Below, in pieces: positions 3,340 through 4,905 of a stretch of 64,000 bases of DNA. Below the pieces are notes generated by a model. It saw only the letters and a program-made list of their open reading frames with translations, did not search any database and had not been told where the DNA came from. Location: contig CALBIL010000038.1 in the NCBI GenBank assembly GCA_937892945.1, positions 66,102 through 130,101 of the forward strand, read 5' to 3'. Position numbers and translations under genes: made by a program. Within the stretch, counting starts at the first letter, position 1; each line of letters begins with the position of its first letter. Source of the DNA: an uncultured euryarchaeote. GTDB taxonomy: Archaea > Thermoplasmatota > Poseidoniia > Poseidoniales > Poseidoniaceae.

Positions 3340-4905
3340 TCATTCTTTGTCAGGGATGTAAAAGAGTTCAACACTGCCGGTTCCAAGTGAAATTGGTTGA
3401 CCAACGATAATGTTCTCAGCAACACCGGTGAGGTAATCCTTTTCTCCGATAACACCGGCTTTGAGCAAGTGGTTAACGGTAACTTCGAAAGCAGCACGAG
3501 CCAAGATACTGTGCTTGGTTCCTGATACACCGTGTCGTCCAATAGCACGAACTTCACCTTCAGAAGTCATCACGTCAGCAACCAACAGCAAGTGTCGGAC
3601 ATCAACTTCCAAGCGGGCTCCGTCAAGAGTTGCTTGTAGTTCGTCAACAATCGCTTGTCGAGCAGCTTCAATTCCAAGGAAATCAAAGATTTCAATGATG
3701 TTGTTCGTGTAGGTTCGATTTCGGTCAATGGTTTCGATTTCGCTGACACGGGTCAAGTTAGAACCGATGGTTGAAAGGTAGTATTCACCAGTTTTGTCAT
3801 CCAATTGCACGTTCGCACGGGTGATGTTTGGAATACCTTTGAGGCGCATGTCACGAATCTTTTCTTCCAATTGAAGCAGCATGGTATACGAAGGTGGGTT
3901 TTCAGCGATTTCAGCCAAATCTTCTTCGGTGTGAACACCAGGTATGAGGGTCAAGGTCGAAGGGTTCTTTTCCTTGTCTGCTTGAACCAAAAGACGTGTA
4001 GCACGTTCCAGTTTGTCCTTGACTTCAGCACCAGTCATGTTCTTCTGCTTGAGATTGGCCTTGTTCAGTTTCAAGACGAGACGTCGCTGTGCAACGTCGG
4101 TCTCTAAAGAAGCGATGTTAACAGTGTGAGTTTCCTCAATTGCAGCTGCAAGTTTACGAGCTTCATCAGCAGACTTCATCTTTTCACCAGACAAGTAAAT
4201 GGTCATCGTAGGAGTGTTTGGTACCTTTCGTGCATCGACAATCTCGATGATACGAGGAAGACCTTGAGTGACGTTGACTGTTGCAACACCAGCATAGTGG
4301 AAAGTACGCATAGTCATCTGCGTTCCAGGTTCACCAATGGATTGAGCAGTAATAATTCCTGCTGCTTCGTATGGATCGATACTGGCTCGGTTAAGAGCAA
4401 CGACTGATTCATCAATCACTTTCTTTGCTTGAGGCTTGGTCAATTTGTTCTTGCCACGTGCATGAATAGCGACTGTGAGGTCATGGAAAATTCGATTGGT
4501 AAATCGAGAAGAACCATTCGCATCAACAGCAGCGACGAGGGACTTGAAAACTGGGTCATCAGCCAGCTCATCTTCATATTGTAAGATTTTGGATGAACTG
4601 TCGTAGTCAGTCATGGCGACTGATGTCTTTGCACGAGCAATTGCTCGTCCTGTTCGGCGAAGTCGGACTGAAGTTGTTGGTCCAGTGTTTTCGCTGTTCG
4701 CATCTCCACCTTTCTTACTTGCAGTATCGATGGTAGATTTGATATTTGCAGCAGTTTCGGAATCGGTCTCACAAATTTGTGCGATTTCTCCAGCAGCGAG
4801 GATTTTTACATCATCCCACTTTTTGTCATCAGCAAGAGCATGCGCATGATTTTCTGCGATACCCAGATCCATAAGCTTCTTCTTTGTTGCACTCTTTACG
4901 ACCAT
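3340..4905 (-). CDS. rpoA2: DNA-directed RNA polymerase subunit A'' (Rpo1C) with an extra ~100-aa N-terminal extension carrying an HhH/HeH-like module
   Basis: [25 protein letters not shown] and the remainder are typical A''. The ATG at 4905-4903 overlaps the rpoA' stop (TGATG). The track's 4908 start is an upstream TTG. The first ~50 aa ([27 protein letters not shown]...) are homologous to the N-terminus of the rpoH ORF. Confidence 0.9.

Follow-up and report, generated by a model that had tools for sequence, protein, structure and literature searches.

A shared N-terminal module with a predicted helix-hairpin-helix-like fold on RNA polymerase subunits A'' and H of Poseidoniales and on proteins of virus-like contigs

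We describe a protein module that heads two subunits of the same RNA polymerase, A'' and H, in a 64,000-nucleotide stretch of DNA (the window) from an uncultured euryarchaeote of the Poseidoniales (assembly GCA_937892945.1, contig CALBIL010000038.1, positions 66,102 to 130,101 of the forward strand). The module is restricted to one lineage, Poseidoniales, and has spread to other proteins, encoded on virus-like marine contigs. Judging from sequence comparison, the duplication that placed it on two subunits is old, older than the split of the sampled lineages. On the polymerase, we tentatively read the two copies as tethered arms at the jaw that holds downstream DNA, a reading that we set against the alternatives below.

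Two homologous N-termini on one polymerase

Both genes lie on the minus strand, rpoH at 11732-12382 (216 aa) and rpoA'' at 3340-4905 (a single uninterrupted open reading frame, ORF, of 521 aa from its ATG), and their products share the start MVVKSATKK[KR]LM[DE]LG[IV].E..AH.LA.D....D[VI]K. The module comprises residues 1-66 of RpoA'' (4708-4905, minus strand), as delimited by homology searches, AlphaFold, and Foldseek, and residues 1-65 of RpoH (12188-12382, minus strand), where homology searches and AlphaFold outlined a second, H-type copy. An earlier note on this DNA had called the two N-termini homologous, and formal alignment bore this out: RpoA'' and RpoH are identical at 27 of their first 66 residues (41%; E 4e-13, BLASTP), and a profile–profile comparison of 18 A''-type with 14 H-type modules gave a probability of 99.8% over 62 columns (E 5.4e-29). 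When the modules were searched against the whole window with tblastn, the two copies were recovered at E 1e-12 to 4e-12, and no third copy was found in the 64 kb, either by tblastn or by a broader unfiltered hidden Markov model (HMM) search with --max.

The two DNA copies are 58% identical over their first 135 nt (58/73/42% by codon position), and this level, with third positions at 42%, excludes recent gene conversion. A divergent locus (L092), whose RpoB and RpoA'' are 73% and 59% identical to those of the window and whose DNA could not be aligned, has both modules. Between the window lineage and this 73%-RpoB lineage, orthologous modules share 74% (A'') and 62% (H) of their residues, while paralogous modules share 45-53%. 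The duplication therefore predates these lineages, as the earlier note had surmised.

To follow the module across genomes, we scanned GTDB with one genome per species, which yielded at least 537 confirmed stretches; the best 80 of these are all Poseidoniales. The extension is kept in the rpoA'' orthologues: the module stands at the head of rpoA'' in 80 of the 80 loci, with complete ORFs of 504-530 aa and a few shorter ones cut by a contig end. An RpoH of 215-216 aa with its own module was present in every one of these loci that included 7.5 kb of upstream DNA. Considering all fetched loci, both modules were found in 91 of the 91 that hold both genes (RpoH, 194-216 aa). At the DNA level, the operon of the window matches Poseidoniales (Marine Group II) genome bins with 95% identity. 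Poseidoniales-type rpoA'' genes with the module also occur in two bins filed under Rhodobiaceae bacterium (L071, CALDQY010000227.1) and Verrucomicrobiales bacterium (L077, NZEQ01000074.1), placements that are probably due to bin contamination. An unusual spacing of rpoH and rpoA'' at one locus (L028) was explained by a scaffold gap.

The start codon of rpoA'' had been considered anchored because its ATG (4905-4903) overlaps the rpoA' stop codon (TGA, 4907-4905) as TGATG. This junction (4903-4919, minus strand) includes GGAGGTGA (4919-4912), 7 nt upstream of the ATG, and a TTG codon at 4908, one codon 5' of it; the third codon of the stop-to-stop segment is where the module begins at most of the 80 related loci. 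The anchoring gains strength from the pattern of substitution. Among 137 distinct rpoA'' sequences, differing codon pairs were synonymous in 96% of cases over codons 1-12, in 58% over codons 13-47, and in 33% over codons 48-66; V3 is written with four codons and L11 with six, each for a single residue. The N-terminus is thus translated and under strong purifying selection at the protein level, and the dominance of synonymous change in codons 1-12 rules out the downstream start at Met12 (MELGV...) from which many public Poseidoniales RpoH gene calls of 205 aa begin, with the conserved arm cut off. Public annotation is uneven in other respects as well, since many RpoH and RpoA'' entries are labeled "hypothetical protein" and rpoA'' is broken into frameshifted fragments in long-read assemblies.

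The extension lies outside the canonical subunits. RpoA'' scored 429.6 bits against the 367 positions of NCBIfam TIGR02389 (cutoff 420.65), an equivalog-level assignment to archaeal subunit A'', with model positions 5-365 aligned to residues 138-515, so that residues 1-137 fall outside the family model; the Pfam family Rpb1_5 (PF04998) matched from residue 140 (E 5e-51). Accordingly, the extension measures ~100-135 aa, the exact figure varying with the residue taken as the start of the core, in keeping with the ~100 aa estimated earlier. Behind the module, RpoA'' continues with a linker that is basic in its central part (residues 67-104; 4594-4707, minus strand), an acidic, helical-looking stretch upstream of both family matches (residues 105-137; 4495-4593, minus strand), and the canonical core with trigger loop, jaw, and cleft (residues 138-521 plus stop codon; 3340-4494, minus strand). 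In RpoH, the module is followed by the basic linker SRRRSKSKSKKITIRAKAIDDFDRPEITMR (residues 66-95; 12098-12187, minus strand) and by a core resembling the C-terminal domain of Rpb5 (residues 96-216 plus stop codon; 11732-12097, minus strand; PF01191). Each subunit thus carries ~95-135 additional residues, made up of module and basic linker and, in A'', the acidic stretch.

The assignment of RpoH rests on a score of 38.9 bits against PF01191, above the Pfam gathering cutoff of 23.5, and on the position of its gene directly upstream of rpoB. Its core contains two lineage-specific insertions of ~20 residues each around residues 110-190, and because of these, only residues 144-212 align with PF01191 and the NCBIfam equivalog NF007129 scores 48.2, under its cutoff of 83. 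In a more divergent lineage, RpoH (P0185, 196 aa) is without part of these insertions.

Predicted fold and tethered arms at the jaw

The (HhH)2 fold is built of five helices, with two helix-hairpin-helix (HhH) motifs and a connector helix between them. AlphaFold, given an alignment of 66 diverse modules, predicted a five-helix domain with a predicted local distance difference test score (pLDDT) of 83, in which the basic N-terminal arm of the RpoA'' module is followed by helices at residues 6-13, 18-27, 30-34, 38-45, and 49-65, in agreement with the five-helix (HhH)2 layout. The model of full-length RpoH showed the same helices, with pLDDT ~77-80 in the module and 60-74 in the Rpb5-like core. 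When the module was compared with the PDB using Foldseek, the top matches were (HhH)2 domains (query TM-score, TMq, 0.56-0.76; root-mean-square deviation ~2-3 Å), namely, the FANCM C-terminal domain in FANCM–FAAP24 complexes (0.71-0.76), XPF/Hef/ERCC1/UvrC (0.63-0.70), the NusA C-terminal region (0.61, third-best match), and the RadA/Rad51 N-domain (0.56-0.69). The first predicted hairpin contains G15, at least 90% conserved, in L-G-[IV]-x-E..AH.LA, then I/V, then A/S/P/E; the second reads G-[IVL]-[DS] in RpoH and many A'' orthologues. The predicted (HhH)2-like fold agrees with the earlier description of the module as nucleic-acid-binding-like. NCBIfam gave no match to the module, and a BFVD fold search with it returned nothing informative. 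Since no curated sequence model matches and the predicted fold is (HhH)2, we regard the module as a new sequence family of a known fold class, its membership of that class being a prediction. A helix-turn-helix or sigma region 4 identity was rejected, with weak Pfam matches in 5 of the 66 modules and Foldseek TMq of 0.36-0.42 only.

The module appears to be loosely attached. In the full-length RpoH model, residues 66-108 had pLDDT 33-48 and the predicted TM-score was 0.35, which points to two independent domains joined by a predicted disordered basic tether. That the linker is basic, as previously noted, was evident across orthologues, with a mean net charge of +4.6 and 24% K+R in RpoA'' (residues 67-105, 111 distinct orthologues) and +5.5 in 29 aa in RpoH (39 distinct orthologues). 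The N-terminal arm of the module always has a net charge of +3 to +4. Some JGI names append "Cu/Ag efflux protein CusF" to these subunits, a spurious sub-threshold match on the basic linker; a CusF-like domain was dismissed, its matches there being far under the cutoffs.

We propose, with confidence a little short of even, that the two polymerase modules are mobile tethered arms at the downstream-DNA jaw, combining a grip on DNA with a landing site for partners. A disordered basic linker of ~30-40 residues would tie each module to the N-terminus of RpoH or RpoA'', and the two arms would form a mobile pair on the face where DNA enters the Poseidoniales polymerase. The basic linker and the +4 N-terminal arm would ride on the DNA backbone, while the helical (HhH)2 body would offer a hairpin or a docking surface; in this way, the arms would add both non-specific DNA grip and a landing site. 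Their location is suggested by analogy with other polymerases. In the Pyrococcus enzyme, the lower jaw consists of H and A'', which cross-link to downstream DNA (PMC2847245). In Sulfolobus, Rpo13 lies between Rpo5/H and the clamp head and extends a basic tail into the DNA entry channel; in eukaryotes, the equivalent place is taken by the Rpb5 jaw, which binds downstream DNA (PMC2675907); archaeal RpoH has the C-terminal domain of Rpb5 only (PMC3906176). We also count for contact with DNA that some other carriers of the module, described below, are DNA-related, one having a TFIIB cyclin repeat (P0165) and another zinc fingers with an ABC-type ATPase (P0186).

Several observations weigh against this proposal. 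The Foldseek E-values were at least 0.35 and thus not significant, as expected for only 66 residues, and SAM domains matched nearly as well (TMq 0.68), so that a SAM-like topology is possible. The second hairpin of A'' in the window is C-E-T-D instead of G-h-G. Pfam returned no family at E<1 for either N-terminal segment, HHH_5 (PF14520) was matched by 2 of the 66 modules with a best E of 0.07, and PDB sequence searches with three module profiles gave nothing meaningful. The disorder of the A'' linker is suggested by its composition and by analogy with RpoH, and a disordered tether of 35 residues could reach many parts of the enzyme, which makes the downstream-DNA location conjectural. The body of the module is acidic, with a mean net charge of -3.5 at residues 13-47 (range -7 to 0) and -1.1 at residues 48-66, a charge closer to that of the acidic (HhH)2 repeats through which NusA binds proteins than to that of a typical DNA binder. 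Finally, the near-invariance of residues 1-12 across ~20-25 unrelated architectures exceeds what non-specific DNA binding would need. Because the body is acidic, the extra DNA contacts suggested in the earlier note are one of two live readings, the recruitment of factors or protein docking being hinted at least as well; the two are mutually compatible.

The design recalls several known systems without matching any of them. The C-terminal domain of the bacterial alpha subunit (alpha-CTD) is present in two copies per enzyme on flexible linkers, contacts the DNA minor groove, and docks regulators including the AR2 repeat of NusA, itself an (HhH)2 domain. Like the module, it is a small helical domain with HhH elements, flexibly tethered and present twice per enzyme; it differs in being C-terminal, on the assembly-platform subunit, and directed at upstream DNA, while the Poseidoniales module is N-terminal on the jaw subunits H and A'' and its copies are diverged paralogues on different subunits. 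The alpha-CTD family (PF03118) gave no Pfam match to the module, so the analogy is one of design only.

Two archaeal and eukaryotic additions occur at the same site. Rpo13 of Sulfolobales is likewise a small helical addition peculiar to its lineage, placed beside Rpo5/H where DNA enters the enzyme, and its highly basic tail has been proposed to contact downstream DNA (PMC2675907). However, it is a separate helix-turn-helix subunit, unfused, unduplicated, and unshared with other proteins, whereas the module is fused. The N-terminal jaw of eukaryotic Rpb5 is, like the module, an N-terminal extension of the RpoH orthologue, and it contacts downstream DNA and transcription factors (PMC2675907, PMC3906176); in contrast, it has another fold with no homology (no Rpb5_N match), is packed on the enzyme rather than tethered, and is absent from Rpb1. 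Neither the Rpo13 nor the Rpb5 N-terminal jaw family had a Pfam match at E<1 in RpoH, RpoA'', or their N-terminal segments.

The best structural matches, XPF/ERCC1, Hef, FANCM/FAAP24, UvrC, and the RadA/Rad51 N-domain, have the five-helix layout in common with the module. (HhH)2 domains of the XPF/ERCC1 type bind the DNA backbone non-specifically and form homo- or heterodimers. They act in repair and recombination and show no significant sequence or profile similarity to the module, whose hairpins are degenerate. The AR1 and AR2 repeats of bacterial NusA are acidic (HhH)2 domains that make protein–protein contacts in transcription, AR2 binding the alpha-CTD. They share the acidic body and a high structural rank with the module but are C-terminal tandem repeats in an elongation factor, with no homology to it at the sequence level.

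Module carriers on virus-like contigs and alternative explanations

The earlier note had treated the module as an appendage private to RNA polymerase, and this did not hold. An exhaustive HMMER scan of 1.84 billion representative proteins returned just 204 clusters at E<1e-3, which marks the family as narrow. (A first homology search had returned only proteins of up to 166 aa, probably through a length effect of the tool, and is uninformative on full-length carriers.) Within this family, the first ~45 residues of the module head ~20-25 unrelated, mostly ORFan, non-polymerase architectures; when the non-module parts of 248 module proteins were clustered, 13 multi-member non-polymerase families and ~10 convincing singletons were obtained. 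Nearly all of the 150 listed carriers have the module at Met1, and M1, V3, K4, S5, A6, T7, K8, K9, L11, G15, A21, L24, and D27 are each at least 90% conserved. Of 35 non-polymerase modules, 33 are nearer to the A'' type. Most carriers had no Pfam, PHROG, or NCBIfam match.

A few carriers have recognizable partners for the module. P0165 (L089:314-895; 193 aa) joins it to a single TFIIB cyclin repeat (PF00382, 25.9 bits, cutoff 23.6) without zinc ribbon or B-reader, its sole source being one low-coverage contig of 970 bp. P0186 (L091:1012-3567; 851 aa) combines C2H2-like zinc fingers, an H-type module at residues 93-148, and an ABC/AAA_15-AAA_21 ATPase that matches models of anti-phage defense (PADLOC NsnB 2e-38, AriA 7e-17). 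In P0152, the module is C-terminal (residues 452-506). A family of 210-225 aa (P0176, P0172, P0191, P0244, P0245, and P0406; loci L097, L102, L103, and L177-L179, gene at ~10001-10650) bears, besides the module, an internal GFRGLGSLF and a C-terminal DGLGSLFG-COOH, similar to the tail with which the archaeal ribosomal stalk protein aP1 ends. In the Pyrococcus protein, L103, L106, F107, and the terminal G108 bind aEF1-alpha, and L103, L106, and F107 also bind aEF2 (PMC4267659). On this sequence resemblance, the family may be a mimic of the ribosomal stalk tail. Its gene always adjoins one for a bacterial/phage-type (PolA-family) 5'-3' exonuclease, on virus-like contigs of up to ~169 kb.

The carrier contigs are dense in ORFans and also encode class II ribonucleotide reductase, PCNA, endonuclease VII, an ERCC4 nuclease, ThyX-like and PrimPol-like proteins, full-length TFB, nucleoside deoxyribosyltransferase, UvdE, and several C5 and N6/N4 methylases. 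One of them (L083, with carrier P0199) has both a full-length TFB, with zinc ribbon and TFIIB repeats (E 2e-28), and a PrimPol-like primase (genes at 7569-8411 and 900-1805), so this element brings its own transcription initiation factor. The GC content of carrier contigs is 39-46%, against 46.5% for the window. The longest do not exceed 169 kb, three separate records, UEXM01000032.1 among them, measuring 168.9, 169.1, and 169.4 kb, and polymerase copies of the module lie on contigs of up to 1.6 Mb. The carrier-contig stretches examined have one module gene each, and one carrier is from the Tara 0.1-0.22 µm size fraction. The stretches examined showed no gene for a capsid, portal, or terminase protein, and PHROGs gave almost no matches to carriers and their neighbors. 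IMG/VR scans with the module profile and with the neighboring exonuclease found nothing, and tblastn of GenBank phages with the module consensus, P0166, and an ORFan gave no match. Searched against GenBank, the exonuclease retrieved distant PolA-type 5'-3' exonucleases only, mostly in phage records, and PDB sequence searches with two carrier-neighbor proteins found nothing. Their gene content suggests that the carrier contigs are probably large viruses or virus-like replicons of Poseidoniales; probable is the most that can be said, because none of the three hallmark genes was seen and the module is absent from IMG/VR and GenBank phages.

These carriers lend themselves to a different emphasis, in which the module would be mainly a protein–protein domain that virus-like elements copied to aim their proteins at the host transcription machine. 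We consider this possible but doubtful as the principal explanation. Carrier modules would either pair with the polymerase modules as an (HhH)2–(HhH)2 heterodimer, for which XPF–ERCC1, FANCM–FAAP24, and NusA AR2 with the alpha-CTD are precedents, or compete with them for a common host partner. The acidic body, the constraint on residues 1-12, and the re-use by elements together point to a specific protein partner and to module–module pairing, and the top structural matches are domains known to dimerize. The same emphasis would suit a module that is constant in its 13 conserved positions and in its place at Met1 on so many unrelated architectures, is mostly A''-like, and is found on contigs with the virus-like gene content and limited length described above. 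It would also suit a module that stands where a TFB-like protein would have zinc ribbon and B-reader (P0165) and is borne by a defense-type ATPase (P0186). Against this, the viral nature of the carriers is probable only, P0165 comes from that single short contig, and host and virus also commonly share DNA-binding domains.

Going one step further, the module might be a docking handle in a virus–host conflict over the transcription machine, copied by elements, mostly in its A'' version, onto ~20-25 effector architectures, a scenario that we judge unlikely. The polymerase arms would then be landing sites, and the effectors would pair with or compete against them; the stalk-tail carrier could bring translation GTPases to the polymerase, the TFB-like protein would be another effector, and the defense-type ATPase would bear the module possibly as bait.

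Two further explanations address the polymerase copies or the N-terminus alone. The H and A'' modules could pair inside one enzyme and so assemble or stabilize the lower jaw, the other carriers being unrelated re-uses. There are exactly two copies per operon, on adjacent subunits; both are kept wherever both genes were found; the H and A'' types have been distinct since before the split of the sampled lineages, as a heterodimer would predict; and (HhH)2 domains often heterodimerize. Yet other archaea assemble H and A'' without such a domain (PMC3906176), long disordered basic tethers would be needless for a structural clasp, and the A''-type sequence of most other carriers would go unexplained, so we regard this as very unlikely. 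Alternatively, the invariant residues 1-12 and the first helices could be a signal for targeting, modification, or turnover, as in packaging, localization, or regulated proteolysis. Residues 1-12 are by far the most constrained part of the module and nearly always begin at Met1, but the internal module of P0186 and the C-terminal one of P0152 imply that a free N-terminus is not required, and a folded domain of 45-65 residues exceeds the needs of a signal peptide. We know of no comparable archaeal system, and a signal of this kind is highly improbable. That the module is an artefact, through chance similarity, an untranslated extension with a downstream start, or a separate small gene, is refuted despite the many RpoH calls from Met12 and the many database entries of only 56-166 aa, given the alignment significance (4e-13 and 5e-29), the uninterrupted ORFs of related loci, the synonymous changes prevailing in codons 1-12, and the nature of the short entries, which are contig-end fragments, frameshifted long-read assemblies, or adapter read-throughs and which led us to reject a separate small protein.

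Gene neighborhood and meaning of the module

The operon reads rpoH-rpoB-rpoA'-rpoA'' followed by an L7Ae/L30e-family gene, and the order is the same at the divergent locus L092. Between the two module-bearing genes lie rpoB (8108-11719, minus strand) and rpoA' (4905-8111, minus strand; 1068 aa); the L7Ae/L30e-family gene (2996-3295, minus strand) is the last of the operon. RpoA' contains an insertion of ~150 residues (~415-563) that interrupts Pfam Rpb1 domain 2 after profile position 85, position 86 resuming behind it. The insertion has the cysteine motifs CHNPEC...C and CPHC resembling a zinc-binding element and is close to the part of the chain from which the dock and active-site domain of other polymerases is formed. 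Upstream of the operon, a tRNA-Lys(UUU) gene (12430-12505, minus strand) has its 3' end 47 nt from the rpoH ATG, and rpoH is without an evident Shine-Dalgarno-like sequence, in contrast to GGAGGTGA ahead of rpoA''. Divergent from rpoH, a gene at 12709-14181 (plus strand) encodes a protein of 490 aa in which a small MTS/PrmA-like methyltransferase domain is fused to a biotin/lipoate protein ligase domain, and this gene is found in the equivalent position at L092. At 1-2600, numerous long ORFs overlap one another on both strands of the window, and their translations are repetitive, of low complexity, and rich in S/P/T/M; the stretch may belong to a large gene for a repetitive surface protein that extends past the window start.

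A lineage-specific accessory domain on a multisubunit polymerase is of a kind already known. As far as can be told, three things are new, namely, the module family, its occurrence in duplicate on two subunits, and the fact that virus-like elements share it: full-text literature searches with the motif and for Poseidoniales/Marine Group II polymerase and magroviruses found no description of the module, which also goes unmentioned in a 2026 survey of how archaeal polymerase subunits evolved. As a sequence family, the module is compact, lies outside current domain libraries, and is mis-annotated publicly.

Poseidoniales are among the most abundant archaea of the surface ocean, and none is cultured. 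If the proposal of tethered arms is true, their polymerase carries two tethered helix-hairpin-helix arms that have not been seen in the archaeal or eukaryotic polymerases studied, and it would represent an independent invention of an alpha-CTD-like "domain on a string" at the jaw site to which Rpo13 and the Rpb5 jaw were also added. The module further serves as a sequence marker that ties virus-like replicons to Poseidoniales hosts, and the carrier modules offer a testable way to study the means by which such elements engage the transcription, and possibly the translation, of the host. Together, these results make the module look like a binding arm, specific to one lineage's transcription machine, that mobile elements have copied.

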